In this document: positions 8,661-27,087 of the stretch, one piece after another
Layout: each line of letters starts with the position of its first letter
Position numbering within the stretch: the first letter of the stretch is position 1
From: Burkholderiaceae bacterium
GTDB taxonomy: Bacteria > Pseudomonadota > Gammaproteobacteria > Burkholderiales > Burkholderiaceae
Reading direction: 5' to 3'
NCBI GenBank assembly: GCA_965234555.1
Contig: OZ248347.1
Coordinates: 1,523,270-1,555,269 of the forward strand
Length of the DNA: 32,000 nt
The notes under the pieces: model-generated
The model's database searches: none
The model's input: the letters and a program-made list of their open reading frames with translations, nothing else
Told to the model about the DNA's origin: nothing
Position numbers and translations under genes: made by a program

Positions 8661-8662
8661 TA

Positions 8663-13925: not shown

Positions 13926-14402
13926 ATGGTTAATTCTAAATTTTTATGTTTAAGCATGAAAAATATCTTAAAGATTGCACTAAACGAACATACGCCACCT
14001 AGGTCGGCAAAAAGTTTAGTTTATGCCTCTAAGATTTTTGCGAATGCTTATTTTGATGAACTCGAATCTACTTACTCAAAAGGTAACGTACGTGCGAGGA
14101 AAAATGGTTTAGAGTTTTTTATTTTAGATTTGATTGTAAATTTTAAAGAGAGGGATGTATCTTTTCCAACCCCTGCATTAATAAACTTACTAAAATCAGA
14201 TCAAGACATTTTTTCCTTTACCAGTAATTTGATTCAAGGTGAAACGCCATTCACAAGTTTGTGGATTGAAACATCAAAAGAAAAAAGGGAGGAAATCATG
14301 AAGGCTCATAAAGTTGTTAGAGCATTTATTGAAGATCGCATTGAGAATGTATTCAACCCTTTGTATGTTTATGTGCCAAAAAGCATACAGAAAAATTACT
14401 GA
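13926..14402 (+). CDS. hypothetical protein (158 aa), AT-rich
   Basis: ORF track; strong AAGGAGG RBS; strong terminator downstream. Confidence 0.6.
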   Translation: MVNSKFLCLSMKNILKIALNEHTPPRSAKSLVYASKIFANAYFDELESTYSKGNVRARKNGLEFFILDLIVNFKERDVSFPTPALINLLKSDQDIFSFTSNLIQGETPFTSLWIETSKEKREEIMKAHKVVRAFIEDRIENVFNPLYVYVPKSIQKNY

Positions 14403-14424
14403 TTACATTAATGACTAAGTTCTT

Positions 14425-14450
14425 AGCCCACTTTCGAGTGGGCTTTTTTC
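14425..14450 (+). terminator. Rho-independent terminator AGCCCACT-TTCG-AGTGGGCT + T6
   Basis: Read directly. Confidence 0.8.
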
Positions 14451-14452
14451 TT

Positions 14453-14469
14453 TGTCGTTTTAAACGACA
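14453..14469. repeat. PAL-5: TGTCGTTTTAAACGACA (perfect)
   Basis: Read directly; lies 3 nt beyond the integrase stop codon. Confidence 0.95.
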
Positions 14470-14472
14470 ATC

Positions 14473-15738
14473 TCAAGCTAACTTATCCGCCACCATGGTT
14501 GGTGTCAATTTGGAATAGTGCCGCTCAATCATGGCGGCACTATTACCCATCTGTTTAGCCAGTGTATGAATATCCACATCACGCTCGATTAAGGATAGGG
14601 TCGCGTAAGTATGCCTAAAGCTATACATGCTGCGCCGTCGTCCGGTGTTGTCAAACAATAGGCCACAGTCTTTCATCAGCCACTTAAAAGCACTGACCAG
14701 ATCATAAGGTCGTGTGCCATCGGGGTAGCGCCACAGATACTCTTCACGCTGCTCGGCGAGCAATTCATCTAGAGATAAAAGCGCCATATCCGCAAATCTT
14801 GATTTAATGCGCTCAATCACTGGGATCGCTTCTTTTCTGGCGATTAACCAACGCCCTCCCGTTTTGCCATCCACCCAAATCCTTAGATACTTAGTACCTG
14901 ACTTATCCATGTGCCACTCCAAGTGTCGCCACTGAATAGTCAGTGACTCCGTACCATGGCGCATACCAGTAGCGAGTAGGATCTCAATGTAGTCACGCAG
15001 TAAGTGTCTGCCCGCATGAGCTTTAGCGGATTTACCACCTTCCACCCACGTAGTCATAAAGTTCATTAGATAGTCCACCTCTTGCCTAGAAAACGCGGGT
15101 CTAGCCACTCCCTTCTCACCTTTGGTGTTAAGTCTAGCGATCAAGTGACGATCACTGAGCCACCCTTTGGCAATGGCTAGGTCATAGACCTTGTTATAGG
15201 CCACCGAATGGGTGGCGAGCGTTGAGGATTTGGCCTTGCGTCCCATCTTAAGATTGCGCCATGCTTCATAGTCACCCACCACCTTGTGATTGATTTTGAC
15301 AAGATCAAAATTACCGAAAAATGGGATGAGATAGGCTTTGATCACAGCCAAATAATCCACGTAGATCTTTTTGCCCACTTCACTATCGAGATCACGTTGT
15401 AGTTCTTGTGCCAATTGCTCTGCCACCACTTTAAACTTTTTCGGGGAGATTGGAAAACCCATTTCTTCCATAAAGCGAGCCCGATCATAGATCTCACCCG
15501 CTTTCTTTTTGGCATAGTCTAGGTCTGAATAGCCTGTAGTGATGCGATACCACTGCTTGTTGTAGAGCTTAAAGGTCATCTGCCACTTGTTACTGCGGGT
15601 ACGCTTATACAACGTGACTTCACCATCGCGGATATGAACTAAACGTCCCGTGGCTAGATTTTCGAGTTTTTTGAGGTGAGGACTTGTTCTGGGCTGCTCA
15701 GCAGTTTGAGCTTCTGAAAAAGCAAGAATCTGTGCCAT
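14473..15738 (-). CDS. tyrosine-type site-specific integrase (421 aa)
   Basis: Catalytic R (ATGMRHGTE), HxxR (FRHTYATL), and H...Y at the C-terminus (GNSAAMIERHYSK); N-terminal arm-type-like domain. Confidence 0.9.
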   Translation of the reverse strand: MAQILAFSEAQTAEQPRTSPHLKKLENLATGRLVHIRDGEVTLYKRTRSNKWQMTFKLYNKQWYRITTGYSDLDYAKKKAGEIYDRARFMEEMGFPISPKKFKVVAEQLAQELQRDLDSEVGKKIYVDYLAVIKAYLIPFFGNFDLVKINHKVVGDYEAWRNLKMGRKAKSSTLATHSVAYNKVYDLAIAKGWLSDRHLIARLNTKGEKGVARPAFSRQEVDYLMNFMTTWVEGGKSAKAHAGRHLLRDYIEILLATGMRHGTESLTIQWRHLEWHMDKSGTKYLRIWVDGKTGGRWLIARKEAIPVIERIKSRFADMALLSLDELLAEQREEYLWRYPDGTRPYDLVSAFKWLMKDCGLLFDNTGRRRSMYSFRHTYATLSLIERDVDIHTLAKQMGNSAAMIERHYSKLTPTMVADKLA

Positions 15739-15786
15739 CCAACTTTTTGGTTTGTGAAAAGCACAGCTTAATTTCGAAACGGATGG

Positions 15787-15801
15787 TTGGGCAACCGAAA
15801 A
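15787..15801 (-). promoter_or_regulatory. shared upstream motif (TTTTCGGTTGCCCAA on the minus strand), 48 nt before the integrase start
   Basis: See 10373-10387; PAL-6 follows 3 nt away. Confidence 0.5.
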
Positions 15802-15804
15802 ATT

Positions 15805-15821
15805 TGTCGTTTAAAACGACA
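15805..15821. repeat. PAL-6: TGTCGTTTAAAACGACA (perfect, centre A)
   Basis: Read directly; 67 nt upstream of the integrase start. Confidence 0.95.
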
Positions 15822-16019
15822 TAGCCAGAGAGGGCTATTTGGCCTGCGGATTACTACAACATCGTAATCATAATAAACATTATGTGATTATTTGGAGAGA
15901 AGAGTTGGTACTTATAAAATTGATTGTTATTCACATTAACGAAAAACTAAAATGAATTACTTGTGATTAAGCTTTTCTTTAGCAGGCATCAATACGGAAA
16001 ATTCTAATAAGCGGGCTTT

Positions 16020-17339
16020 TTATTGAGGAAAAAGTTCTAGCTGTTTTTTTATTTTTTTCGTTTTTGGCCCACCTTTCCCAGTTTCTTTAATAACATTAGC
16101 AACACTTATTGCCTTAAGCATTTGATTCGCAACTGCTCGAATTACTGGTACACATACAGAATTACCAAACTGTTTATAGGTTTGGGCATCAGAAACTGAG
16201 TTAATAATAAATGACTCTGGGAAACCTTGTAAGCGAGCGCATTCTCTTGGCGTAAGCTTTCTTGGATTCTTATTGAGTTTACTTTGGTCAATCAAAATCT
16301 CGCTTCCATCTTTGTAATATCTTGCGCTTATAGTACTTGTGTAAGGACTTTCTTTAGAAAAAAGAGAGTACCCAAATCCATTTCCTTTTATCTGATGCTC
16401 TTCTTTTCTTCGTAAATGGCCTTGCCATAACTTATCTGACAATGTATATTTTTCATCAATTTTTTCAGAGTTTTCAAGAATGTCGCCTAATCTTGTTGGG
16501 GTCATTGGTGGGTCTGGCCAACTAAAGACGTCCTCAAAATCAACATTCTTTCCAAAGTAAGCAGTATCAAAGCCTACGATAAAGATTCGCTCTCTATTCT
16601 GTGGGACTCCAAAATCTCTTGCCCTCAAAACTTTATAGAAGACTTGGTAACGAAGTTTTGCTGATAATGCTTTTCTTGCCTCATCAGACATGGGGATAGT
16701 ATCTGGAATAATCTGTTCGCTTTTGCCTTCCAATATTTCCAAGATATGCTGAAGGGTTCTTCCTTTATCGTGGCCTTTTAATTGCTTTACATTTTCAAGA
16801 AGAAATGCTTTAGGCATCTTTTCAGCTAGGATACGTTGTATCTCAAAAAACATTGTTCCGCGAGAATCATTAAAGCCTTTTTTTAATCCTGCCTGTGAAA
16901 ATGCCTGACAGGGAAATCCACCCAATAAGATGTCATGATCAGGTATATCTTTGGCTTTTATTTTTGTAATGTCTCCATTCGGTAGGTGACCAAAGTTGGT
17001 GGCATAAACTTTTTGAGAAAACTTATCCCATTCAGATGTGAATACACATTTGCCACCAAGCTCTTGAAATGGTAAACGAATACCACCTATGCCTGCGAAA
17101 AGATCAATAAACTTAAATGAATGCTTTACTTTTGCTGGCTGTTTAAATGGAACGTGTGTAGTTAATTGTTTTATTTGCTCCCATTTGGTAGGGGAGGGCT
17201 CATGCTCACCTCTCTCCCAACCGCCTACGGTCCTCTCGCCATGGTTTTTTAAGTTCATTAGGTCTGCGAACTCTATTTGGGTTAGCCCCAATAGCTCTCT
17301 TTTTTCCCTGATATATTTGGCTTTATCTGTAGATTTCAT
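16020..17339 (-). CDS. DNA (cytosine-5)-methyltransferase with an N-terminal XRE-type HTH (439 aa)
   Basis: Motifs FIDLFAGIGG (I), GGFPCQAFS (IV), ENV (VI), QNRERIF (VIII), TPRECARLQGFP (IX), GNSV (X). The ISARYYKDGSEILI segment recalls Dcm/EcoRII/SsoII-type target-recognition domains. Confidence 0.92.
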   Translation of the reverse strand: MKSTDKAKYIREKRELLGLTQIEFADLMNLKNHGERTVGGWERGEHEPSPTKWEQIKQLTTHVPFKQPAKVKHSFKFIDLFAGIGGIRLPFQELGGKCVFTSEWDKFSQKVYATNFGHLPNGDITKIKAKDIPDHDILLGGFPCQAFSQAGLKKGFNDSRGTMFFEIQRILAEKMPKAFLLENVKQLKGHDKGRTLQHILEILEGKSEQIIPDTIPMSDEARKALSAKLRYQVFYKVLRARDFGVPQNRERIFIVGFDTAYFGKNVDFEDVFSWPDPPMTPTRLGDILENSEKIDEKYTLSDKLWQGHLRRKEEHQIKGNGFGYSLFSKESPYTSTISARYYKDGSEILIDQSKLNKNPRKLTPRECARLQGFPESFIINSVSDAQTYKQFGNSVCVPVIRAVANQMLKAISVANVIKETGKGGPKTKKIKKQLELFPQ

Positions 17340-17483
17340 AGGCTTTTAACTTTTAACTTATCCTGATTTTTACCCTGATTTTTATTTAATTTTAGCTTCA
17401 TTCTCCATAAAAGATACTCACGTCTTTGAATAGGCACGGCATCTCGTGGTATGTTGGAAGCTTCTAAATGCTAGGGCTATTTA

Positions 17484-18236
17484 ATGTCTGAAAAGGACAT
17501 AATCATCAGGCTGTTTAATGAGCGAGTTAGGGGCAGGCATCCTGAAACAACTTCATTTAATCAGCGTCACGATGGAAAGGTTGGGCATTGGCTTGAGAAA
17601 CAAATGGGTATTCATGCCAATAGCAGTAATACACCAGATTTATTTGGTTATGAAATGAAAAATGACACAACTTCTAAGACCACATTTGGGGATTGGTCCG
17701 CGAACTATTACATATTCAAGAGAAATAATCCTTATGGGCTTACTCGAAGTGACTTCCTTCGTATTTTTGGAAAACCAAATCCTCTAAAAAATGGACGTCA
17801 CTCTTGGTCAGGCGAACCCATACCATCAATAAAGGGGGTAAATAAGTTTGGGCAAAACTTATTCATAGATAGTGAAAATAATATTCACGCAAAGTATCAC
17901 TATTCAAAAGATGAACGACCAGACAAAGTCTCTATTGTTCCCTTTAGCTTGAGAATTGATGATTTGACAATAGCGCGATGGGATGCCGGTAAGCTTCAAA
18001 AAAAAGTTGAAAATAAATTTAATAAGATGGGTTGGTTTAAATGTTTACGGGATTCTACAGGCGCATACTCATCTATTGTGTTTGGTGACCCAATAAATTA
18101 TGAAACTTGGATTAGCTTAGTCAAAACTGGTGACATTTACTTTGATAGTGGTATGTATGAAGGTAACATAAGGCCTTATTCTCAATGGAGAGCTGATAAT
18201 GCTCTTTGGAACAAGCTCATAACGAGTAAACACTGA
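17484..18236 (+). CDS. type II restriction endonuclease candidate, MutH/BcnI/MvaI-like PD-(D/E)xK (250 aa)
   Basis: GHWLEKQMGI-x9-PDLFGYEMK resembles the MutH/Sau3AI/BcnI catalytic motif. Divergent from the methyltransferase and AT-rich. Confidence 0.7.
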   Translation: MSEKDIIIRLFNERVRGRHPETTSFNQRHDGKVGHWLEKQMGIHANSSNTPDLFGYEMKNDTTSKTTFGDWSANYYIFKRNNPYGLTRSDFLRIFGKPNPLKNGRHSWSGEPIPSIKGVNKFGQNLFIDSENNIHAKYHYSKDERPDKVSIVPFSLRIDDLTIARWDAGKLQKKVENKFNKMGWFKCLRDSTGAYSSIVFGDPINYETWISLVKTGDIYFDSGMYEGNIRPYSQWRADNALWNKLITSKH

Positions 18237-18247
18237 GGTAGATTAGT

Positions 18248-18781
18248 ATGATTCGCTGGACATATTTTCCTAAAAACAAACCTATTACTAAGCTAGGTTT
18301 TGAAATAGTCGAGGTATTTCAAAAGCATGAGGATACTATTTCATCCACATCCAATAATCACTTAATTGGGACCGGCACGACAGACTCTCATAGTAATAGT
18401 GTTTTAGAGAAGTTAGCTAAATCTTTGGCTAGTATAGGGTTTCAGGTAGAGACGGGAAAAAAGGCTTCCCAAAAAATTCATGTTCCTGTTCTTTATGGGG
18501 AGCAAGGTAAGCCCATCCAATCATTTGATGCTGATGCCTTCAATCCAAACGAAAAGTTTGTCCTTGAGGTAGAAGCTGGAAGAGCAGTTAGTAACTATCA
18601 ATTTCTTAAAGATTATTTTCAGGCTTGCGTAATGGTGGATGTTGACTATTTAGCAATTGCTGTCAGGCAGGTTTATAACAAACAAAAAGACTACGAAACA
18701 GTCTGTGGCTTCTTTGATACCTTGTATTCAAGTGGTCGCCTAAAAACAGAGTTAAAAGGTGTCTTGATTGTTGGATATTAA
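18248..18781 (+). CDS. second nuclease-like protein (177 aa) with a D...ExE motif
   Basis: FDADAF-x9-VLEVEAGR is reminiscent of BamHI/BglII-type PD-(D/E)xK sites; starts 12 nt after the upstream R gene. Confidence 0.45.
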   Translation: MIRWTYFPKNKPITKLGFEIVEVFQKHEDTISSTSNNHLIGTGTTDSHSNSVLEKLAKSLASIGFQVETGKKASQKIHVPVLYGEQGKPIQSFDADAFNPNEKFVLEVEAGRAVSNYQFLKDYFQACVMVDVDYLAIAVRQVYNKQKDYETVCGFFDTLYSSGRLKTELKGVLIVGY

Positions 18782-18962
18782 GACTCTCTAAATATCTCTT
18801 ATGGTAATTGTATTTTTATTATTTTTAATCTGATTTAATTTTTTGACAAACGCTGGAACTAAAAATTTTTAATTTTTTTCTTGTGAATTGTTATTAAATA
18901 GGCTGAGGCTCATCTGGTGATCTTTTAATCCCCTATGCTTAGGATACTTTATGGGAGGATCT

Positions 18963-19118
18963 ATGAAAAAACGTCTTTATAGCTTAGGTTTTGGGATCGC
19001 ATTTGTATCTTCTTTGTTTCTAAGTCAGGCAGTATTAGCCTGTACCACTCAAACCCTAATAGTAGGTGGCAAGATGACCGTGTGTACTGTCTGCGGCACA
19101 GTTGTGTCTTGTATGTAA
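18963..19118 (+). CDS. small lipoprotein (51 aa precursor, lipobox VLAC; mature peptide has 4 Cys)
   Basis: Translated by hand; GGGAGG RBS; below the ORF-track size cut-off. Confidence 0.5.
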   Translation: MKKRLYSLGFGIAFVSSLFLSQAVLACTTQTLIVGGKMTVCTVCGTVVSCM

Positions 19119-19128
19119 GGAGGTTCTT

Positions 19129-19452
19129 ATGAGATTCTTATTTTTAATCGCTGGGTTGGCCGTATTGCCCGTACAAGCACAAATCACATTCTTTAATGAT
19201 TCTTTGGGCATGCCACTGGGCACAGCCAATCAAGTAGGTAACACCACGTTTTACAGCGATGCCATGGGGTTACCTTTGGGCACAGCACAAACCATTGGTA
19301 ATACAACCTTTTATAGCAACAGTCTTGGCTTGCCGTTGGGTACGGCGAATACTCCACAACCTATCCCTTCATACACGCCCCGCTACGGTCCGCCGTCGTC
19401 TCCAACTTTTCCTACAGCGCCACTATTTCCAACCAGTCCTCGTGGTATGTGA
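19129..19452 (+). CDS. secreted tandem-repeat protein (three repeats of about 20 aa, GNTTFYSxxxGxPLGTA, plus a Pro-rich tail)
   Basis: ORF track 19102..19452, start moved to the ATG at 19129 behind an AAGGAGG RBS; signal peptide ..PVQAQ. Confidence 0.6.
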   Translation: MRFLFLIAGLAVLPVQAQITFFNDSLGMPLGTANQVGNTTFYSDAMGLPLGTAQTIGNTTFYSNSLGLPLGTANTPQPIPSYTPRYGPPSSPTFPTAPLFPTSPRGM

Positions 19453-19501
19453 TGATTTATATTTAGATTATGTGAACACTTGCTGAACGCAGATTAAAGA
19501 A

Positions 19502-19870
19502 ATGAGCCAGAAAAAGTACAAAGTAGTTACCCATGAGGCCAATTACACCCCACCTGATTTTGGCTCACTACTTCCAGTTAATGAATTTGATACAGCGGAA
19601 GAAGCAATCAAGTGCCTCAAGCAAGTCATAGATAAGCAACTATTAGCATCCCTAAATGAAGGGAAAACACCTAAAGACACATATGACTTATTTTCTCTTT
19701 ATGGTGAGATTCCCATTATTGAAGGGGAACCAAGGGTGTATGTACATCCTTTTGAATATGCTAAAAAGAGAATTCAGGAGCTGGCCTATCTGAAGATCAT
19801 AAAAAAAATTGATGATCATATGTACCTAAAAGAACAAGAAAATTTGAAGTCAATCAAAAAAGATGATTGA
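19502..19870 (+). CDS. hypothetical protein (122 aa)
   Basis: ORF track; no family recognised. Confidence 0.5.
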   Translation: MSQKKYKVVTHEANYTPPDFGSLLPVNEFDTAEEAIKCLKQVIDKQLLASLNEGKTPKDTYDLFSLYGEIPIIEGEPRVYVHPFEYAKKRIQELAYLKIIKKIDDHMYLKEQENLKSIKKDD

Positions 19871-19991
19871 TAATTACTAGATTTTGATATAGACTGAAAG
19901 TACATCAAGAGATGGCTTTGTCGCCACAGCAACCTGCTAACGCAGTAAGGTGCTAAAAAGATGAGACTCTATACGAGTAATCAAAAGCGAC

Positions 19992-20016
19992 AAACCCGTC
20001 TTTTGGCGGGTTTTTT
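19992..20016 (+). terminator. hairpin AAACCCG-loop-CGGGTTT + T tract
   Basis: Read directly; lies inside the 5' extension of ORF 19961..20770, which argues for the later start. Confidence 0.5.
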
Positions 20017-20083
20017 ATTGGGCGGATTTATTCCTACTTGCCATGCCCAGACAGGTGTCGAAATAGCTAAATTGGAGAAAGAA

Positions 20084-20770
20084 ATGAAAACTAATCACTT
20101 TGCTTTTTATCGTAAACGCATCCGCCAACCCCAAGAAAAGATTGCTGAAATACTAAATGTTCCATTAGATGTCTATATTGAATTTGAGGAGAACAAACGA
20201 GAGTCGTCTCAGCGGGTTAAAGAAGCTTTTGATTCTTTGTTAGCTCGCTTTCCCGGCAGCACAGATTTGTCATCATTAAAGATGCCTGCTATTGACCGGT
20301 ACAAAGCGGATTACCTATTTAAAACTGGTAAACAGCCTACAGGTAAGCATTGGATTCCATTTTCGTTCGCAACAAGCAAAAGAACGCTGGTTGATTTCAG
20401 TCCTTACGATGATGATTTAAATAAGGGAGTTATTAAGACTGAAGCAGAAATGAATCAATGGATCAATGAGCATGACTTACCTCCAATGATCACACCTGAA
20501 TACTTTAATCACCTAACCACACTGAATAATCGAGAGCTTCAAGAAGAGGCAGAATTTTGGGATAGATTTTATACAGCTCAGCATTATGGGAAATATAAGT
20601 CGAGAACAACACCAAAAGAACTTGAGGAGCAAATTAGGAGGAAAAGTGAGCAAACTAGAACGTATTGGATTAATAGAGTTCATAGTGTGCTGTTAAAACT
20701 ATTCGCAGGGCTAATTATTCTATGGGCTATTGCTTATCTAATTTTATGGTTAGATAGGTATAAACTTTAA
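20084..20770 (+). CDS. membrane-anchored protein with a weak N-terminal HTH-like segment and a C-terminal TM helix (228 aa)
   Basis: ORF track 19961..20770, start moved to the ATG at 20084 (GGAGAAAGAA RBS). C-terminal LLKLFAGLIILWAIAYLILWL. Confidence 0.5.
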   Translation: MKTNHFAFYRKRIRQPQEKIAEILNVPLDVYIEFEENKRESSQRVKEAFDSLLARFPGSTDLSSLKMPAIDRYKADYLFKTGKQPTGKHWIPFSFATSKRTLVDFSPYDDDLNKGVIKTEAEMNQWINEHDLPPMITPEYFNHLTTLNNRELQEEAEFWDRFYTAQHYGKYKSRTTPKELEEQIRRKSEQTRTYWINRVHSVLLKLFAGLIILWAIAYLILWLDRYKL

Positions 20771-20771
20771 T

Positions 20772-20788
20772 TGTCGTTTTAAACGACG
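20772..20788. repeat. PAL-7: TGTCGTTTTAAACGACG (1 mismatch)
   Basis: Read directly; begins 2 nt after the stop of the upstream CDS. Confidence 0.85.
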
Positions 20789-20815
20789 TTATAAATCGAG
20801 GTTATAGCTCATACT

Positions 20816-21079
20816 ATGAGCCACAATAACTTTATTCTTCCTAGAGAATCAGCTTTTTTTAAGTCGGGAGAACCCATGAGTAATGTTGAAATTCTAGGAA
20901 AATTCAAGTGCCAGCCTATTAAAGTTAGATTGCGAGATGAACTCAATCCATTTAATCAATTGAAATCCAAAACAACAGCTCTTCCCTTAACTTATACAGA
21001 TTTAGTCTATGAGCGCGATGTCACAGATCAAAATCTCACTAACTACGAAGGCTCTATGAATAAGTTAAAAACGAAATAA
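20816..21079 (+). CDS. hypothetical protein (87 aa; alternative start at 20876)
   Basis: ORF track. Confidence 0.4.
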   Translation: MSHNNFILPRESAFFKSGEPMSNVEILGKFKCQPIKVRLRDELNPFNQLKSKTTALPLTYTDLVYERDVTDQNLTNYEGSMNKLKTK

Positions 21080-21110
21080 ACAAAAGATTAATTAATTTAT
21101 CAAGGCACAC

Positions 21111-21608
21111 ATGAGAGAACTTTCACACCTTTTTACCAGAGAAACCCCAAGACAAATCATTCTTGAAGACTTCAAGATTGATCTTCCAATCACTGGCAGC
21201 TGGGGGTATGACTTTGAATCAGCCTGCGTTATTGATAAAAATGATCCGATAGTAAACCAAACTATTCCATTTAATGGTGTGAGCATTGAATATATATTTG
21301 TTGAAAAACGAATATACGAGGAGATGATTATTTTCCGCGAGGCTAATGAAAAATTCTCAGGCATTAGGTGGGATCTAGAAAAACAAGAGCTTGTCTTTCA
21401 AAATGAAAAGCCTTACGACAAGCTTACTTTTAAGGTTGTAGGCTTTGCTGATGAGGTGTGGGACGAGCTAACAAGGCGTTTTGAAGAACTCAAAAATAAA
21501 GGTCAATTAGATCTACTTCCTGAATTAGACGCCTATAGGGATTCGAAAGCCTATAGATTTACTAGAGAGTATTACTTTGATATTTCAAGCTTTTATGGTC
21601 AGCCGTGA
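21111..21608 (+). CDS. hypothetical protein (165 aa)
   Basis: ORF track. Confidence 0.5.
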   Translation: MRELSHLFTRETPRQIILEDFKIDLPITGSWGYDFESACVIDKNDPIVNQTIPFNGVSIEYIFVEKRIYEEMIIFREANEKFSGIRWDLEKQELVFQNEKPYDKLTFKVVGFADEVWDELTRRFEELKNKGQLDLLPELDAYRDSKAYRFTREYYFDISSFYGQP

Positions 21609-21635
21609 TCTGGTTTGCCCACCAAGATATGCGAC

Positions 21636-21652
21636 TGTCATTTAAAACGACA
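21636..21652. repeat. PAL-8: TGTCATTTAAAACGACA (1 mismatch, centre A)
   Basis: Read directly. Confidence 0.85.
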
Positions 21653-21684
21653 CATTCCATAACCTCACGGATGGGATATTCCCC
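21653..21684 (+). repeat. R-box copy (CATTCCATAACCTCACGGATGGGATATTCCCC)
   Basis: Near-identical to 23936-23966 and similar to 26928-26957; always immediately right of a PAL. Confidence 0.85.
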
Positions 21685-21699
21685 AGTTTGAGCTTGGCT

Positions 21700-21730
21700 G
21701 GGGCGGAATCGAACCAGGGCCGAGGATGTC
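21700..21730 (-). repeat. L-box copy; minus strand reads like a tRNA T-loop plus 3' acceptor remnant (..GGTTCGATTCCGCCCC)
   Basis: Similar to 22788-22823 and 23863-23901. Confidence 0.75.
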
Positions 21731-21869
21731 TGATCCACCCAACTAATTTACCCCTAAATCACCCACTTTGAGGAGATAGGATATGGTTGGTAGGCTTTTA
21801 GCCATCACACCCTGCTTGCATAATGAAAGGCTTGTGTTTCATATTCAATCGATGGGTTAGTGCTACCAG

Positions 21870-22691
21870 CTATTTTTTTAGATTTTGTTTTAAAAACATG
21901 GCTACTGCATCACGTGCATTTGTTGCGTCATATGTATTGTCATGACCCGTACCGCCAAGCTCAAGCGTTGTTAGCGATCCATCCATCCTTCCGTTTGAAC
22001 ATCTTGATTTTGCTTGTCCAAACCAAGGATCGATACTATATGAGATTACAAGACTCCTTACACCCTGTTCAAATCCAATACCCGTAAAACAAAAACCGCT
22101 TGATAAAACTATTCCGCGTATACCTTCTATCTGGGTTCGAGCAAGGGCCTCTGCACCTTCACTGTGTCCCATAAAAAATATGTTATCAACATCTACCCAT
22201 GATAATTTTTTAAGCTCAAGCATTGCATACGCAATCTCTTGTTCTCTATAAGGAATAGCCATTGGAAAATTATTTGTTACCGAATTAGTACGGGAGTCGC
22301 AATTTGAAATTCTTTTTGGCCTAGCAAAGCTATCTGGCAGTATCACGACAAATCCGAGATTAGCAATATATTGCCCCCATTGTTGATCATGATAAGACTG
22401 TATGCCTGCACAACCATGAAGATAGATAGCCACAGGATATTTTTGGTCTAATTTTATATTTTTGATTCTTTTTGCAAAATTACTTTCTGGAATAAAAACC
22501 ATAGCTTTATCCCAGCTATTTTCAATGCCCTTGTCCATATGAATTTTTCCTGCAGCCCTATCTTTTGCTAATTGCTCGATATACCTATCCCCATCGGCTA
22601 TAGATTCAGACCCTGGTGGCTCCTCAAGAGCATGACTACTAAATGTCAAAAATAATAGTGCTGAAAATAATAGCTTTAAGGAAAGTTTCAT
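21870..22691 (-). CDS. secreted alpha/beta hydrolase (dienelactone-hydrolase-like), 273 aa
   Basis: Signal peptide; nucleophile elbow GHSEGA. Confidence 0.7.
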   Translation of the reverse strand: MKLSLKLLFSALLFLTFSSHALEEPPGSESIADGDRYIEQLAKDRAAGKIHMDKGIENSWDKAMVFIPESNFAKRIKNIKLDQKYPVAIYLHGCAGIQSYHDQQWGQYIANLGFVVILPDSFARPKRISNCDSRTNSVTNNFPMAIPYREQEIAYAMLELKKLSWVDVDNIFFMGHSEGAEALARTQIEGIRGIVLSSGFCFTGIGFEQGVRSLVISYSIDPWFGQAKSRCSNGRMDGSLTTLELGGTGHDNTYDATNARDAVAMFLKQNLKK

Positions 22692-22787
22692 ATTTTTCTA
22701 ATATTTTTATTGAGGTTATTTAACTTTAACATTCAAATTTGATTAAGAATGAACAAATCATCTCAAGCTAGTTATGATGTTTCTTGC

Positions 22788-22823
22788 GTGGCCCGAGGCA
22801 AAATCAGCTTGGGCTGAGCATGC
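22788..22823 (-). repeat. L-box copy (diverged)
   Basis: About 30 of 36 positions match 23865-23900 by hand alignment. Confidence 0.7.
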
Positions 22824-22840
22824 TCATCGCGTGCTTATTC

Positions 22841-22857
22841 TGTCGTTTTAAACCACA
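22841..22857. repeat. PAL-9: TGTCGTTTTAAACCACA (1 mismatch)
   Basis: Read directly; followed by a degenerate R-box (..GCACAGGGATGGAACATC..). Confidence 0.85.
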
Positions 22858-23007
22858 TCTACTGGCACAGGGATGGAACATCTTTGTAGCTCCCCCCACC
22901 GCTACATGAAGCCTTGCTTTAAAGAACATTACTTAATTGCGCTCAATAAATTAACCAGGCCGCGAAAATAAGATTACGTCTAAGTAATCGTAAATGTAAA
23001 ATCTGTA

Positions 23008-23682
23008 ATGAAAATTATTACTAATTCAATATCAAATGATCTTATGCTAAAAAATTTATTTGTGATCATTGTTTCTTGTGCCTTGATAGGCTGCTCTGCA
23101 ACGATGGGGCCAAGTGGGGATCAAACTAGGCCTGGCATTATTGTATTACCCACAAGCGGCGGCGTTCATCATGAGAATTCTTATGCCTCACAACTCAGCA
23201 GAAAAGGTTTTCAGGTAGTGGTTGCTGACTACCATCAACGCGGTGGCACAGACAATATAACCTTAGCCTATGATGCTCTCCGTAAAGATCCTCGAGTTGG
23301 AAAAATTGGAATGGTTGGGTTTAGTCGTGGAGCAGTTATGGGCGCAAATCATGCTTATTTTCTCCACCAAAACAGCGATCGAAAAATTGATGCGATTGTG
23401 AGTTTTTATATTGGGCCCACAACGCCACATGCTAATACATCAATACTGCCGATATTATTTTTACAAGGTGAATTAGATAATTATGTTAAGCCAAATCAAT
23501 TGATACAGTTTTGTAACGCTTTGGATGCCAGCGGCAAGCGTTGTAAGGTAAAAGAGTTTAAAAATGTGGGGCACGCTTTTGATCAAACGAGAACCCTGCC
23601 AATTTATTCAGGCTTTAATCGCGAGGCTACTGAAGATTCCTATGATCTAACCATACAATGGCTTAATCAGTGGCTTAAATAA
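23008..23682 (+). CDS. lipoprotein alpha/beta hydrolase (dienelactone-hydrolase family), 224 aa
   Basis: Lipobox LIGC; nucleophile elbow GFSRGA; C-terminal GHAF. Confidence 0.7.
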   Translation: MKIITNSISNDLMLKNLFVIIVSCALIGCSATMGPSGDQTRPGIIVLPTSGGVHHENSYASQLSRKGFQVVVADYHQRGGTDNITLAYDALRKDPRVGKIGMVGFSRGAVMGANHAYFLHQNSDRKIDAIVSFYIGPTTPHANTSILPILFLQGELDNYVKPNQLIQFCNALDASGKRCKVKEFKNVGHAFDQTRTLPIYSGFNREATEDSYDLTIQWLNQWLK

Positions 23683-23711
23683 TTACTTTTGTTGTGCCGA
23701 CTATCAAAAAA

Positions 23712-23728
23712 TATCGTTTTAAACGACA
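23712..23728. repeat. PAL-10: TATCGTTTTAAACGACA (1 mismatch)
   Basis: Read directly. Confidence 0.85.
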
Positions 23729-23756
23729 TCGACTGACATAAGGATGAATAATTGAC

Positions 23757-23775
23757 GCGTCCTTTTAAAGGACGC
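23757..23775. repeat. variant palindrome GCGTCCTTTTAAAGGACGC (different arms, same TTTTAAA centre)
   Basis: Perfect 9-1-9 palindrome read directly, inside the gene-less PAL-10 to PAL-11 interval. Confidence 0.8.
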
Positions 23776-23862
23776 TTCATGATGGGGATATCCGGCTCTA
23801 ATGGCGTCTAAGCCTACCAAGCCCAAAAGAAAATAGCCCAACAAGTGGGCTATTGAGATTCT

Positions 23863-23901
23863 TGGTGGCCCGGGGCGGAATCAACTAGGGCTGAGGATGC
23901 C
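23863..23901 (-). repeat. L-box copy; minus strand ends ..GATTCCGCCCCGGGCCACCA (T-loop end, T-stem, 7-nt acceptor strand, A, CCA)
   Basis: The spacing is exactly that of a tRNA 3' end. The T-stem 5' strand does not pair, so this is a remnant and not a gene. Confidence 0.7.
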
Positions 23902-23918
23902 TAACTCTAACTCTAGAC

Positions 23919-23935
23919 TGTCGTTTTAAACGACA
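23919..23935. repeat. PAL-11: TGTCGTTTTAAACGACA (perfect)
   Basis: Read directly; flanked by an L-box on the left and an R-box on the right. Confidence 0.95.
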
Positions 23936-23966
23936 AATTCCATAACCTCACGGATGAGATATTCCC
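23936..23966 (+). repeat. R-box copy
   Basis: AATTCCATAACCTCACGGATGAGATATTCCC; continues into a promoter-like block homologous to 26958-27010. Confidence 0.85.
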
Positions 23967-24019
23967 ATGGTTGGGCATGGCTGGCTCTTGAGACCTTTTG
24001 ACCTTATAATTACTAGTTC

Positions 24020-24050
24020 GGCGAATTAGCTCAGCTGGTTAGAGCGACGG
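24020..24050 (+). pseudogene. tRNA-Met 5' fragment (positions 1-31) with the island-borne upstream block
   Basis: 31/31 identity to 27011-27041; the upstream ~85 nt is homologous to 26928-27010. Confidence 0.9.
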
Positions 24051-24065
24051 GATCCGACTCCGAAC

Positions 24066-24455
24066 CTACAAAAGCGGTTGAACAAACGCAAACCATCCAC
24101 CTATCATTAATAAGCTAAGGCTAATCCAATAAATTCGTTCTGAGAATTTCCGTGTTTTTAAGCAGGCATCACGCATCTTAGGATCAATCGGACATGGGGC
24201 ATTTCGATTACGCCACTGCAATATGCCGCCAATGAGCATCAAACCACTACTTAATGCAAATATCGCCTCTTTATGCTCGCTAATCCACACAATCTTTGGA
24301 AATACAGATACTAAAGAGGCGAGCGTTGCCCCCGCACCCAAACTGACCAGGAGTGCGGGGATGGCACAGCAAATGAGGGTACTCGAACTCGCAAAGAGGC
24401 TAATTAAAGAACTGATATAGCTTGTCTTTGTTTCATTCAAGCCGTCTTGACTCAT
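24066..24455 (-). CDS. MerT-like heavy-metal transport membrane protein (copy 2)
   Basis: 129 aa; same CC and C..C motifs as copy 1. Confidence 0.6.
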   Translation of the reverse strand: MSQDGLNETKTSYISSLISLFASSSTLICCAIPALLVSLGAGATLASLVSVFPKIVWISEHKEAIFALSSGLMLIGGILQWRNRNAPCPIDPKMRDACLKTRKFSERIYWISLSLLMIGGWFAFVQPLL

Positions 24456-24778
24456 TTTTTATCCTTCTGCTGAGCCCTAAACTGGGCAACTGTCTGGGAG
24501 ATCGTTTCAATCTTGACCACGTCGTAGCCTGAGTCTTTAATCTCTTGACTAATCAGCTTCTCGTTTAAGGTTTTACCTTCCTTTGCCTCAACGACCACTA
24601 CTTTATTTTTGAGATCCACAAAAACGGCTTTGGTCTCATCCATCTTTGAAATACTTTTTTCAATACCTTGGGCACAAAACGAGCAAACCATGCCATTGAC
24701 AGTGACCTTCATGCTTGCCAGTGCGGTCTGACTCAAACCCATTAATGCGATTGCGATGATTAAGTTGATCTGTTTCAT
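24452..24778 (-). CDS. periplasmic HMA-domain protein (copy 2)
   Basis: 108 aa, GMVCSFC; 6 differences from copy 1. Confidence 0.85.
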   Translation of the reverse strand: MKQINLIIAIALMGLSQTALASMKVTVNGMVCSFCAQGIEKSISKMDETKAVFVDLKNKVVVVEAKEGKTLNEKLISQEIKDSGYDVVKIETISQTVAQFRAQQKDKK

Positions 24779-24788
24779 CTTGATTCTC

Positions 24789-25439
24789 CTAATAGTTATA
24801 CATAAAGTTAAAACGCAGTTGTCCTGATAAATTGGCGCCTGCCTCTACAAAGTACCGTTTATGAATGACCCTTACCATCGGGGTGAACTCATACTGCTTA
24901 GAAACAAAGGTCATACGCCTTGCCTCAACCACGATCCAGGGCTGAGGCTCATCGTAGTCAGCCTCATAAAAGGAGGCGCCCAAACGAGCCGTAGTGATAT
25001 TGCTCGTGGCCCCCTGTGCCGCATAGACCCGGGCTGATGCCATGGAATAAAAGCGGGTAGTCTCATAATCCACCTGAATACCGGGTGACGCCATGGCTTT
25101 TGAGCCACCAAAGGTATTTCCGGTTGTAGAGCCAAGGCCGCCAATAAACCAGATATTGGCTTGAGCCTCTGGCAGATTCCAGCGCGCTACCTTGCGGGTG
25201 TAAACCGCTTCAAGATTTTGCTGTTTTGACACAGAGTTATCCGTTTGCATAGCGCTTGCTGAAATTCCAAATGCATCGTTTGCGGTAGTGGCATAGTTCA
25301 AGCCAAACTCCTGATAGGTTTTACTAAAGTCACCCATCAGCATCCAGCTGTTCTTAAACCCCATCGGTGCCGCAAATGAATTTGAGACAGCTCCCACCAC
25401 TAGCAGAAAAAAACTCGCCAGACTAATCGCTTGCTTCAT
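24789..25439 (-). CDS. putative outer-membrane beta-barrel protein (copy 2)
   Basis: 216 aa; mature part nearly identical to copy 1. Confidence 0.55.
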   Translation of the reverse strand: MKQAISLASFFLLVVGAVSNSFAAPMGFKNSWMLMGDFSKTYQEFGLNYATTANDAFGISASAMQTDNSVSKQQNLEAVYTRKVARWNLPEAQANIWFIGGLGSTTGNTFGGSKAMASPGIQVDYETTRFYSMASARVYAAQGATSNITTARLGASFYEADYDEPQPWIVVEARRMTFVSKQYEFTPMVRVIHKRYFVEAGANLSGQLRFNFMYNY

Positions 25440-25717
25440 TTGAGTTTTTCCATCACTGTGATATCAAGCGTTCCATCAACAACCTTAATCTGGAATCGAA
25501 CCCTGTCTCCAGGTCGATATTGATCCAATGGAATCTCCTTAACCACCCCAAAAGGCATGGTCATCGGGGCCATCTTGATACTGGGTATGTACTCATGCTT
25601 GAGCACAATACGGCTACGTGATTGATCAACACGCACTACTTCGCCATTAACCCATTCGGGGCTGGCATAGACATAGACCGAAAATAGACTGAGGAATACA
25701 ACAATCAATCGCTTCAT
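25436..25717 (-). CDS. CusF-like periplasmic metal-binding protein (copy 2)
   Basis: 93 aa; MAPMTMPF motif. Confidence 0.8.
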   Translation of the reverse strand: MKRLIVVFLSLFSVYVYASPEWVNGEVVRVDQSRSRIVLKHEYIPSIKMAPMTMPFGVVKEIPLDQYRPGDRVRFQIKVVDGTLDITVMEKLK

Positions 25718-25772
25718 TTAACTCTCCAAAAAAGATCAAACCCAAAATTTGGGCGGACTTATCCTAGGGGAG

Positions 25773-26138
25773 TTAAAGAATGGGTGGCTTATTAGCGACC
25801 GAGAGGTCGATACCCGTTAGTGTTTTGAGGGAGGTAGAAAAAGTTTGTGTAAATCGATCTGTTATTAGCGCAGGAACAGAATTTGGTAATAAACCAAAGG
25901 CCATGCATAAAGTACATGAGTAGCATCGATCCCCATTCACTTCAATGGCTTGGTGACTATCCATGGAATGTTGAGCTGCATCACCATTTTGGTGACAAGG
26001 ATGGGCTGCTACCGACTCCTGCATCTGGCTCACGGGGGTGACAAGCATTTTTTGCATGCCCATATCCAACACCGCCCAAGCTTGGACAGGTATTAGAGCA
26101 ATCAAGGAAACAAGCAATAATCTTTTAAACATAGACAT
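25773..26138 (-). CDS. small secreted Cys/His-rich protein (copy 2, most diverged member)
   Basis: 121 aa; HPCHQ and CYSCTLC conserved, central region differs from copy 1. Confidence 0.55.
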   Translation of the reverse strand: MSMFKRLLLVSLIALIPVQAWAVLDMGMQKMLVTPVSQMQESVAAHPCHQNGDAAQHSMDSHQAIEVNGDRCYSCTLCMAFGLLPNSVPALITDRFTQTFSTSLKTLTGIDLSVANKPPIL

Positions 26139-26215
26139 AGCTTAGCACCATCAGAATAAGTCTGCAGAGTAGCTTTGTCAGCTAAAAATCCCCAATTTGC
26201 TGCAGTCCACAATTT

Positions 26216-26249
26216 GGTGAAATAGCTCAGCTGGTTAGAGCGATGGAAT
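26216..26249 (+). pseudogene. diverged tRNA-Met-like 5' fragment (GGTGAAATAGCTCAGCTGGTTAGAGCGATGGAAT)
   Basis: 3 substitutions relative to 27011-27044 (2 in the acceptor stem, 1 in the anticodon stem); same upstream context as fragment 7086. Confidence 0.8.
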
Positions 26250-26855
26250 GGACAATCGAAAACTCAAATTAGCATCTACTGCTGGGAATTCGTCTGCCAA
26301 AATACTGTAAACACAAGTATCTCGAATACTAGCTTTGGCATCTGGGTGACGATTAATTTGATGACTTCGTAATACGCCATCTAATTTCGCCCCCAATCTC
26401 TCAATACCTCGACGACTTTGATGATTAAAGAAATGAGTACGAAATTCCACTGCAATACAATCAAATTTTGTGAATGCGTGACGTAACAATAGCAATTTAC
26501 ATTCCGTATTAATTGCTGTTCGCTGAGCCGACTGTCGATACCAAGTAGACCCTATCTCGAGTCTGCGATTATCCTGATCAATATTCATGTAAGTTGTCAT
26601 TCCAATGGGGCTCCCTTTGGCATCCAAAACACAAAATGGATTCATAGAGCCCAACTGCTGTAAGCCCAAACGCCTATCAATCTCCTTTGCCATTGCCTCA
26701 GGCGAAGGAATGCTTGTGTACCAAAGTTTCCAAAGTTCACCATCTCTAACAGCTTCACATAAACCATCATGATGCGCCATTGTTAATGGCACTAATGTGG
26801 CATGCTTACCTTGTAGGGTTACTGATTCCGAGAATTTCATAGCGGGATATGTCAA
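26235..26855 (-). CDS. GNAT-family N-acetyltransferase (RimJ/RimL-like), 206 aa
   Basis: Length and layout (..LRHAF......IAVEFRTHFFNHQSRRGIERLGAKLDGVLR..) are typical of the GNAT fold. The last ~5 codons are encoded by the tRNA remnant. Confidence 0.75.
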   Translation of the reverse strand: MTYPAMKFSESVTLQGKHATLVPLTMAHHDGLCEAVRDGELWKLWYTSIPSPEAMAKEIDRRLGLQQLGSMNPFCVLDAKGSPIGMTTYMNIDQDNRRLEIGSTWYRQSAQRTAINTECKLLLLRHAFTKFDCIAVEFRTHFFNHQSRRGIERLGAKLDGVLRSHQINRHPDAKASIRDTCVYSILADEFPAVDANLSFRLSIPSL

Positions 26856-26894
26856 TGGCTGTGAATCTTCATTCTGCCATACGGATGGAGAACT

Positions 26895-26909
26895 TTGGGT
26901 AACCGAAAA
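26895..26909 (-). promoter_or_regulatory. shared upstream motif (TTTTCGGTTACCCAA on the minus strand), 39 nt before the GNAT start
   Basis: See 10373-10387; PAL-12 follows 1 nt away. Confidence 0.45.
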
Positions 26910-26910
26910 C

Positions 26911-26927
26911 TGTCGTTTTAAACGTCA
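26911..26927. repeat. PAL-12: TGTCGTTTTAAACGTCA (1 mismatch)
   Basis: Read directly; 83 nt upstream of the intact tRNA. Confidence 0.85.
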
Positions 26928-26957
26928 CACCCACAACCTCACGGATCGGATATTCCC
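26928..26957 (+). repeat. R-box copy (CACCCACAACCTCACGGATCGGATATTCCC)
   Basis: Homologous to 21653-21684 and 23936-23966. Confidence 0.8.
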
Positions 26958-26995
26958 GTGGTTGAGCTTGGCTGGCTCTTGAGCCCTTTTGACCT

Positions 26996-27001
26996 TATAA
27001 T
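26996..27001 (+). promoter_or_regulatory. consensus -10 hexamer TATAAT, 9 nt before the tRNA 5' end (island-borne promoter candidate)
   Basis: Read directly; duplicated at 24005-24010; no convincing -35 (TGGCTC at 17-nt spacing). Confidence 0.35.
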
Positions 27002-27010
27002 ACCTAGTTC

Positions 27011-27087
27011 GGCGAATTAGCTCAGCTGGTTAGAGCGACGGAATCATAATCCGCAGGTCCGGGGTTCAAATCCCTGATTCGCCACCA
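27011..27087 (+). tRNA. tRNA-Met (anticodon CAT); could instead be tRNA-Ile2 if C34 is lysidinylated
   Basis: Hand-folded cloverleaf: acceptor GGCGAAT/ATTCGCC, D arm GCTC..GAGC, anticodon arm ACGGA-ATCATAA-TCCGC, V loop AGGTC, T arm CGGGG-TTCAAAT-CCCTG, encoded CCA; 77 nt. Confidence 0.9.

Follow-up and report, generated by a model that had tools for sequence, protein, structure and literature searches.

A 17-bp palindrome as the probable recombination site of a cassette-exchange system on tRNA-associated integrative elements of Polynucleobacter

The subject of this study is a 17-bp perfect palindrome, TGTCGTTTWAAACGACA (hereafter PAL), that recurs along an island in a 32,000-nt stretch of Burkholderiaceae DNA (contig OZ248347.1, positions 1,523,270 to 1,555,269; hereafter the window, with positions counted from its first letter). 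PAL is probably the site at which cassettes are exchanged by recombination, in a system borne by a family of integrative elements of Polynucleobacter and related freshwater Betaproteobacteria. Homology between related loci breaks at PAL, sites that are empty in one genome are occupied by a PAL-bounded insert in another, one and the same flank meets many unrelated partners at PAL, and the position of the site is conserved.

Results

PAL copies in the window

With up to three mismatches allowed, the window holds 12 copies of PAL where 0.09 are expected, a number that none of 100 shuffles reaches. Its arms, of 8 bp each (TGTCGTTT), enclose a single A or T. All 12 copies fall within 7327-26927, and none lies in the 12 kb of chromosomal sequence that flanks the island in the window. 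They are listed here under the numbers used in an earlier sequence-only reading of this DNA. In the list, R-box and L-box are recurring flanks of PAL, F1 is the flank family of the region downstream of tRNA-Phe, rec188 and int421 are tyrosine recombinase genes, and numbers preceded by L denote related loci.

PAL-1, 7327-7343: perfect, centre A; homology with L025 stops here.
PAL-2, 8663-8679: one mismatch; abuts the stop codon of the DUF6641 gene and forms the left edge of the conserved backbone.
PAL-3, 10598-10614: two mismatches; within the rec188 coding sequence, where it encodes DVLND; kept in close homologs.
PAL-4, 12453-12469: perfect; in the 5' end of orf258; protein homology with L004 and L036 begins here.
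PAL-5, 14453-14469: perfect; 3 nt beyond the int421 stop codon, a position kept in most int421-family loci.
PAL-6, 15805-15821: perfect, centre A; 67 nt upstream of the int421 start codon; the cargo array starts here.
PAL-7, 20772-20788: 1 nt past the orf269 stop codon; left boundary of the orf87-orf165 cassette.
PAL-8, 21636-21652: right boundary of the orf87-orf165 cassette, followed by a 48-nt R-box remnant.
PAL-9, 22841-22857: L-box (tRNA-Phe remnant) on the left, start of F1-type (tRNA-Phe downstream) sequence on the right.
PAL-10, 23712-23728: 29 nt past the stop codon of a dienelactone hydrolase gene; left boundary of a 190-nt tRNA-Phe-downstream module.
PAL-11, 23919-23935: perfect; joins a tRNA-Phe island arm on the left to the R-box and a tRNA-Met 5' half on the right.
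PAL-12, 26911-26927: int-promoter remnant and GNAT gene on the left; R-box, promoter and intact tRNA-Met on the right.

PAL-2, -5, -7, -8 and -10 thus follow stop codons, PAL-6, -9 and -12 stand upstream of genes, and PAL-3 and PAL-4 lie inside genes; the retention of PAL-3 is probably due to coding constraint, and PAL-6 holds a position that may be likened to that of attI. A test for intrinsic terminators or REP-like palindromes was negative, the stem of PAL being AT-rich, no T run following it and no extragenic dispersal reaching into the flanking 12 kb. The central base was considered as an orientation marker and dropped, the counts being 19 T and 7 A next to F1 and 28 T and 19 A next to the R-box, with opposite centres around the cassette of L104. 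Several listed open reading frames (ORFs) cross a PAL, for example 7314-7514 on the minus and 26797-26982 on the plus strand; PAL, which translates as CRFKR(H/Q), adds to the length of these frames, and they are unlikely to be genes.

Flanks recombined around PAL within the window

The sequence-only reading had claimed that a few flank types are shuffled exactly at PAL, and had called this direct evidence of crossover. Smith-Waterman comparison of the 200-nt flanks bears out the shuffling: the similarities score 97, 36, 35 and 28 against a shuffle maximum of 14.5 and did not fall to background on alignment. The highest score belongs to the right flanks of PAL-11 and PAL-12 (89% identity, 23940-24062 versus 26931-27053), which share the R-box and ~85 nt more, as had been read; the right flank of PAL-8 (21654-21701) scores 36 with that of PAL-11 and 35 with that of PAL-12, so the R-box is indeed common to the three sites. 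It starts 1-4 nt past PAL, and the left flanks of PAL-8, PAL-11 and PAL-12 are mutually unrelated.

Other flanks fared less uniformly. The L-box similarity between the left flanks of PAL-9 and PAL-11 (22764-22823 versus 23842-23900, score 28) is significant but stops ~18 nt before PAL, so that the earlier statement that homology starts and stops within a few nucleotides of PAL holds for the R-box and most flanks but not for this one. The left flank said to be common to PAL-6 and PAL-12 does match up to the edge of PAL, but the match is short: 14 of 15 positions abutting PAL (TTGGGYAACCGAAAA), plus ACGGATGG with a 5-nt indel, for a score of 13 that ~0.1% of shuffles reach. The supposed degenerate R-box at PAL-9 and PAL-10 had to be given up, as these flanks belong to the tRNA-Phe downstream family and have only a CAGGGATG-like motif in common with the R-box. 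An exchange of flanks at PAL, as expected of a recombination site, is therefore strongly supported by these alignments; "direct evidence" was too strong a term for what is comparative evidence, from which recombination itself would follow as the best account. As PAL is identical in both partners, the alignments would place the strand exchange in PAL as a whole.

Homology breakpoints across genomes

Junctions from other genomes and metagenomes, on which the breakpoints could be mapped, break at PAL in many independent instances. When both flanks of 222 PAL-like sites were read outward, 353 of 677 in-register flank high-scoring segment pairs (HSPs) began 0-4 nt from PAL; in a separate comparison of oriented segments, 232 in-register HSPs were one-sided and 52 two-sided. 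The F1 flank shows the break position by position: in 288 pairs that have F1 in common and differ in the partner flank, identity is ~0.4-1.0 in F1 and ~1.0 in PAL, and drops to ~0.25-0.35 from the first bases past PAL. F1 joins at least 10 partner families and 8 singletons at PAL. The R-box behaves likewise. A metagenome scan for it yielded 47 PAL-R-box junctions, ~81% identical on the R-box side, whose left flanks form 24 unrelated clusters; three of these clusters are the left flanks of PAL-8, PAL-11 and PAL-12 of the window.

Individual loci break in the same manner. L025, which shares with the window the native tRNA-Met 5' half and 200 nt, loses homology at PAL-1. The clearest break is that at PAL-6, which ends at 15821: L135, L137, L138, L142 and L143, with backbones 93-97% identical to that of the window, align to it up to 15822, and the alignments of the more distant L158, L184 and L196 stop at 15821. 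Beyond PAL-6, at least three different cargos are found in the window and these eight related contigs: a C5-methyltransferase/LlaMI restriction-modification system in the window, a ResIII/N6-methyltransferase system in L135, and, in L137, L138, L142 and L143, a copper-resistance block that ends at the next PAL.

Three pairs of loci show the same site empty and occupied. In L118, F1 is joined through one PAL to flank F9; in L104, F1 and F9 are separated by an 801-nt cassette with a PAL at either end and a single gene, for a 204-aa methyltransferase. In L002 and L034, flank F16 is joined through one PAL to F1; L043 carries at that site a 778-nt one-gene insert between two PALs. In L158, orf269 is followed by one PAL and the R-box-tRNA-Met region; in the window, PAL-7, the 847-nt orf87-orf165 cassette and PAL-8 stand between orf269 and the R-box (a comparison that relies on BLAST HSPs, with indels present). 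A single PAL when empty and two when occupied, with nothing else duplicated, is the mark that conservative site-specific recombination leaves when two copies of one site recombine.

Distribution and variants of PAL

An exact scan for PAL with one genome per species returned at least 120 blocks, most of them from Polynucleobacter isolates or freshwater betaproteobacterial metagenome-assembled genomes and often with 2-6 PALs per 8 kb; the window is itself Polynucleobacter DNA. A phage origin of PAL was rejected, viral contigs giving seven single matches, which is chance level.

A second class of palindrome, PAL2 (TGTCCTTTWAAAGGACA), differs from PAL by a symmetric G-to-C change in both arms. It is kept 27 nt from PAL downstream of tRNA-Phe (23758-23774 in the window), and is the sole site type of the Ferrovaceae element L133, which has the same backbone, an integrase 63% identical to int421 and four perfect copies (1458, 1886, 4545 and 8097), one of them 2 nt past the int stop codon. 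PAL2 also stands on both sides (6181, 10431) of a restriction-modification module of L135, and the homology between L135 and L142 ends within PAL2. In some genomes a third variant (GCGTCGMTTWAAKCGACGC) takes the place of PAL downstream of tRNA-Phe.

tRNA remnants and the composite island

A tRNA-Met(CAT) gene lies just right of PAL-12, at 27011-27087 (ARAGORN, Rfam), and is the only tRNA that ARAGORN finds in the window. The R-box and the ~85 nt after it are therefore the upstream region, the promoter and the first 43 nt of tRNA-Met, and the homology between the right flanks of PAL-11 and PAL-12 runs, at its far end, into the tRNA-Met anticodon loop. The window has the first 31 nt of the tRNA four times (7086, 24020, 26216 with 3 mismatches, and 27011), with identity ending in the anticodon loop, which makes 7125-27053 a composite island inside tRNA-Met; to judge from these repeats, it is built by repeated insertion of elements, each bringing a new 5' half. 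The L-box, for its part, is a minus-strand tRNA-Phe(GAA) 3' end with a conserved island arm (AGGGCCGAGGATGYCTRACTCTA), and the 190 nt from PAL-10 to PAL-11 correspond to the region downstream of intact tRNA-Phe in many genomes, where a terminator, PAL2 and the CAGGGATG motif precede PAL. Minus-strand tRNA genes in the L-box and in the right flank of PAL-8 were considered and rejected: ARAGORN is negative, and alignment to other genomes identifies both as tRNA-Phe 3' remnants. The tRNA-derived features are, from left to right:

7086-7124, plus strand: left junction of the composite island, formed by the native 5' half of tRNA-Met behind its own promoter (TTTGCTACAAT); this copy keeps the promoter found natively in other genomes, and its tRNA identity stops in the anticodon loop, directly after GGAATCATAA.
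21653-21733, plus strand: R-box remnant (to 21701) fused to a tRNA-Phe T-arm remnant and island arm (GGCGGAATCGAACC joined to AGGGCCGAGGATGTCTGA).
22764-22823, minus strand: L-box copy at PAL-9, a degenerate tRNA-Phe 3'-end remnant with island arm.
23729-23918, minus strand: 190-nt PAL-bounded module (flank families F1 and F4) of tRNA-Phe downstream region, tRNA-Phe 3' remnant (23863-23887) and island arm, with a CAGGGATG-like motif, PAL2 and a terminator.
23936-24062, plus strand: R-box, tRNA-Met promoter and tRNA-Met 5' part, copy 2, between PAL-11 and the anticodon-loop crossover.
26216-26249, plus strand: end of a foreign copper-gene segment, with the third partial 5' half of tRNA-Met (3 mismatches).
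26928-27010, plus strand: R-box and promoter, directly upstream of the intact tRNA-Met.
27011-27087, plus strand: intact tRNA-Met(CAT), the right end of the composite island.

Two further observations concern these regions. A degenerate PAL (AATCGTTTCAAAGACA) lies at 7149-7165, ~25 nt past the anticodon-loop junction at 7124, and L167 has a good PAL there; the tRNA-Met att region would thus itself be a ~190-nt PAL-bounded module, in the order PAL, R-box, promoter, 5' half, 24 nt, PAL, paralleling the tRNA-Phe module at 23729-23918. The segment 24063-26249, which comprises a second copper/metal cluster and a tRNA-Met 5' half, is ~80% identical to 4934-7119 of the window and 87-90% identical to L069 and L154; by these identities it is a foreign copy of the chromosomal region natively upstream of tRNA-Met, brought in from another Polynucleobacter lineage.

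Since the R-box block consists of the promoter and 5' half of tRNA-Met and the L-box is a tRNA-Phe remnant, part of the flank sharing reflects classical tRNA integration and tandem accretion. That these processes explain all of it, PAL being a conserved feature near element ends (such as an accessory or arm-type site of attP) and not the crossover point, is improbable. Such an explanation would cover the four tRNA-Met 5' parts that end in the anticodon loop, the tRNA-Phe 3' remnant in the L-box, the int421-family genes that adjoin tRNA-Met junctions, and even the spacing of PAL, ~100 nt from the tRNA-Met and ~30 or ~150 nt from the tRNA-Phe crossover regions, which resembles that of attP arm sites. 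It leaves aside, however, that homology also breaks sharply at PALs with no tRNA fragment in their vicinity (PAL-6 in eight contigs, PAL-7 in the comparison with L158, the L104 and L043 cassettes) and that the R-box meets 24 unrelated left flanks exactly at PAL; breakpoints 100 nt from a tRNA crossover are not something that tRNA integration can produce.

Nor did arm-type sites emerge from the ACGGATG repeats, which the sequence-only reading had proposed as such. Of the positions that it gave, 21667 and 23950 are right and 15778 and 26882 are off by one (15779, 26881). The heptamer occurs 6 times in the window against 1.96 expected, a number reached by 3 of 100 shuffles. Its copies fall into two or three families of homologous flanks; those near PAL come from the R-box (three copies, homologous to one another) and from the int-upstream block (two such copies), and F1 has CAGGGATG at a similar distance from PAL. 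In a set of 293 non-redundant flanks GGATG shows no enrichment beside PAL; ACGGATG/GGATG was accordingly rejected as a general PAL-adjacent motif, and a role as arm sites for the attP of tRNA-Met integration is not supported. One part of the flanks did find an explanation: TTGGGYAACCGAAA is the reverse complement of GGTTGCCCAA, a motif kept upstream of int421-family genes (L132, L133, L036, L135-L143), so the left flank of PAL-12 is an int-promoter remnant.

Candidate recombinases and the conserved backbone

The part of the element to the left of PAL-6 (8680-15738, int421 included) recurs in many loci, and both recombinase genes always accompany it. Its components are:

8680-14402: conserved element backbone, with the DUF6641 gene, the Polynucleobacter-1 RNA, orf124, rec188, orf132, orf265, orf258, a clamp-loader-like AAA+ gene and orf158.
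10446-11012, plus strand: rec188, a catalytic-domain-only, Xer-like tyrosine recombinase, the most conserved backbone gene and a candidate for the PAL recombinase.
14473-15738, minus strand: int421, a divergent tyrosine integrase bracketed by PAL-5 and PAL-6.

In a search of PDB sequences, rec188 aligns to the catalytic domains alone of XerA, XerD and XerH, and int421 finds no match. The catalytic R, K, HxxR, H and Y motifs are readable in the rec188 sequence; it has 4570 relatives at E <= 1e-10, many of them near 80% identity among the matches listed. More than 2000 relatives were found for int421. Members of its family (38% identity) directly follow the tRNA-Met 5'-half junction in L069, L164 and L177, which suggests that the primary job of int421 is integration into tRNA-Met; in the window the distance of the gene is 11 kb to tRNA-Met and 7 kb to the left junction. 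A PAL is found within ~25 nt of the stop codon of the int421-family gene in most lineages, and the order backbone, int421, PAL, 8-11 kb of cassettes, PAL, R-box, tRNA-Met recurs in the window, L158, L184 and L196. From this recurring integron-like architecture, with its recombinases in the backbone, either rec188 or int421 is proposed to act at PAL: the PAL enzyme is most likely one of these element-encoded tyrosine recombinases, and a minimal recombinase devoid of a core-binding domain would fit a short symmetric site.

The backbone holds further traces of PAL. Some int421 homologs contain a PAL in the stretch that codes for their N-terminus, where it is translated as WQCRFKRQN (L036 5828-5844, L129 10032-10048), and in the window the 30 nt right of PAL-6 (15822-15850) are a remnant of the 5' coding part of int; by this resemblance, an integrase gene was apparently cut at its internal PAL. 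In L099 (6028-7957, compared with 10446-13916 of the window) the module of orf258 and the AAA+ gene is inverted relative to rec188 with PALs at the junctions (6637, 7304), an arrangement consistent with PAL-mediated inversion.

The replication-like content of the backbone amounts to the clamp-loader-like AAA+ protein and ORFs of unknown function; no primase or helicase was found in it. The Polynucleobacter-1 RNA (Rfam RF01718, an orphan family) lies at 9300-9439 on the plus strand (79 bits) and adjoins the DUF6641 gene in seven independent loci as a fixed backbone component, the copies outside the window being at L036 527-662, L048 1229-1366, L013 6967-7103, L066 2294-2429, L169 4565-4702 and L142 1-132. 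This motif of unknown function thereby gains the genomic context of an integrative element.

The positions of PAL in and near genes also invite a different explanation, namely that PAL is an operator or gene-end element, comparable to the KorB and KorA operators of IncP plasmids, and that modules are swapped by homologous or short-homology recombination over its 17 bp of identity. I consider this unlikely. Some PALs are close to promoters (67 nt ahead of int421, 56 nt ahead of the GNAT gene), backbone genes carry PAL within their 5' ends, the switch from PAL to PAL2 with element lineage implies recognition by an element protein of whatever kind, and breakpoints away from PAL indicate that homologous recombination acts on these elements too. 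Yet the module boundaries examined coincide with PAL in nearly every case and with many independent partners, although 17 bp is below the length that efficient RecA-dependent exchange requires; one-gene cassettes with two PALs facing empty sites with one are typical of conservative site-specific recombination; the majority of PALs are at gene 3' ends and not at promoters; and the backbone encodes two tyrosine recombinases.

A single-stranded hairpin cleaved at its foot, as in integron attC sites or the hairpins of HUH transposases and REP-RAYT systems, is very hard to credit: PAL is perfectly palindromic and breakpoints lie at its edges, but the hairpin is short and weak (7-bp stem, 3-nt loop, -5.7 kcal/mol), lacks bulged bases and comes from 17 bp as against ~57-141 bp in attC, and no gene of the HUH, RAYT or IntI type was found in the window or related loci.

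Cargo of the island in the window

Two cargo segments are bounded by PAL-6, PAL-7 and PAL-8:

15822-20771: first cargo block after PAL-6, with a C5 methyltransferase, an LlaMI-like restriction enzyme, orf177, orf116, orf122, and a SAM riboswitch with orf269.
20789-21635, plus strand: orf87-orf165 cassette, 847 nt, between PAL-7 and PAL-8.

In related backbones other cargo replaces the first block. Directly after PAL-6, 16020-18236 encodes a type II restriction-modification pair, composed of a C5 cytosine methyltransferase with an N-terminal helix-turn-helix (Pfam E = 1e-99) and an LlaMI-like endonuclease (E = 6.5e-60). A SAM-I/IV riboswitch (19897-19994, plus strand, 66 bits with a cut-off of 41) precedes orf269 (19961-20770), whose product has a hydrophobic N-terminus and no Pfam domain, and overlaps its annotated start. 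The pair is kept within island cargo in L158 (riboswitch at 9224-9321).

Discussion

A two-layer model and its weak points

Two layers of site-specific recombination would have built the island at 7125-27053. In the first, classical layer, elements with an int421-type integrase would enter the anticodon loop of tRNA-Met, bringing a new promoter and 5' half; repeated insertion would have left the four 5'-half copies, and remnants of elements that target tRNA-Phe would have been carried in too. In the second layer any two PALs could recombine, exchange presumably taking place inside PAL and by way of a circular intermediate, so that PAL-bounded segments would act as cassettes that are inserted, excised, swapped and probably inverted. 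The anchor PALs at which arrays would grow lie by the int421 promoter, ~100 nt ahead of tRNA-Met and ~125-200 nt past tRNA-Phe. As the same palindrome comes from either partner, every product junction would regenerate PAL and the homology of relatives would end at its edge. The catalyst would be either rec188, minimal, catalytic-domain-only and Xer-like, or int421, the gene of which is bracketed by PALs.

Several observations weigh against recombination at PAL by these enzymes. Support for it is wholly comparative, and the tie of either recombinase to PAL is drawn from genomic context: some int421 homologs have no adjacent PAL (L129, L134), cassette arrays downstream of tRNA-Phe often have no recombinase gene within the 8-kb block examined, and, given that int421-family genes adjoin the tRNA-Met anticodon-loop junctions in L069, L164 and L177, tRNA-Met may be the sole target of int421. 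The site itself raises difficulties. Its central base gives no consistent orientation, the spacer between PAL and the conserved R-box varies between 0, 8 and 9 nt, and the L-box homology falls short of PAL, as described above. PAL or PAL-like sequences lie inside backbone genes (rec188, the 5' end of orf258, the N-terminal region of int in L036 and L129), which a regulatory binding site would fit as well. Finally, the backbone has breakpoints that lack a PAL, at 11018-11459 (spanning orf132) and 13735-14437 (spanning the end of the AAA+ gene and orf158), where the window carries sequence unrelated to that of the 93-97% identical backbones; homologous recombination therefore shapes these elements too.

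Comparison with known systems

Integrons offer the closest parallel in architecture. As in an integron, a tyrosine recombinase gene has a primary site by its promoter (PAL-6, 67 nt upstream of int421), this site is followed by a variable array of small gene modules, a palindromic site separates the modules, usually just past a stop codon, and an empty site has one copy and an occupied site two; an array at a primary site near the integrase promoter is found at PAL-6 in the window and eight contigs, and empty and occupied states in three pairs. Integron attC sites are imperfect palindromes of ~57-141 bp that fold as single strands with extrahelical bases. PAL, by contrast, is a 17-bp perfect palindrome without bulges; PAL cassettes occur in both orientations and some are multi-gene; and the PAL platform rides on a mobile element integrated in a tRNA gene. 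Against the NCBIfam integron-integrase models rec188 gives only partial matches (39 bits for a cut-off of 265 and 23 bits for a cut-off of 435), and int421 gives none.

The pdif/dif modules of Acinetobacter plasmids (PMC6449649, PMC13141974) are alike in that accessory modules bounded by a short recombination site occur in many combinations, that the homology of relatives ends at the sites, as it does at PAL, and that an Xer-like recombinase is implicated. They use 28-bp XerC-spacer-XerD sites that resemble chromosomal dif, and host XerCD. Unlike these, PAL is 17 bp long and symmetric around a single central base, with no 6-bp central region such as that of the dif consensus; its candidate enzyme is encoded by the element and has no N-terminal domain; and PAL modules reside in chromosomal islands by tRNA genes, whereas pdif modules are on plasmids.

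Tycheposons and additive flexible islands (10.1101/2020.12.28.424599; PMC10872708) resemble the composite island in its first layer: a tyrosine-recombinase element at tRNA-Met with clear integration and cargo modules and a possible replication-like one, tandem accretion, decayed remnants, a streamlined planktonic host, and partial tRNA copies (here at 7086, 24020 and 26216) with an intact tRNA at one end (here at 27011). In those papers cargo turns over as entire elements enter and leave tRNA att sites (10.1101/2020.12.28.424599; PMC10872708), whereas cargo would here be exchanged at an internal repeated palindrome; the word "palindrom" is absent from both texts (bioRxiv 10.1101/2020.12.28.424599 and PMC10872708). 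Shufflons and the FimB/FimE invertases likewise combine a small tyrosine recombinase with multiple short repeats, rec188 has the architecture of the ~200-aa invertases, and a PAL-bounded backbone module is inverted in L099. Those systems, however, invert segments to switch expression or protein variants and do not capture foreign genes, and rec188 is similar to DNA-invertase families in architecture alone, with scores of 35 bits for PRK09870 (cut-off 221) and 25 bits for PRK09871 (cut-off 222).

Polynucleobacter is among the most abundant genera of freshwater bacterioplankton. Its strains differ mainly by "additive" islands of gene cassettes, for nitrate assimilation, heavy-metal resistance and other functions (bioRxiv 10.1101/2022.03.25.485477). 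These cassettes have so far been known descriptively, their exchange being loosely credited to integrases and tRNA genes, and the literature covered, Hoetzinger et al. 2017 lying outside it, contains no paper with the PAL sequence and none that ties Polynucleobacter islands to a palindromic junction. A defined 17-bp junction offers a concrete and testable mechanism for this exchange, and PAL a simple sequence tag for flexible genes in freshwater metagenomes. I regard it as evenly balanced whether PAL cassettes represent an unrecognised, integron-like form of gene capture that uses one or two non-IntI tyrosine recombinases and both builds and reshuffles the additive islands of Polynucleobacter and of freshwater Betaproteobacteria close to it, with PAL2 as a second specificity class. 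If they do, a very small symmetric site and a candidate recombinase of 188 aa would be attractive for biochemistry and possibly as a tool, and the site and enzymes of the PAL system, which share none of the defining features of integrons, dif modules or tycheposons, would join integrons and dif modules as a third system of cassettes or modules.

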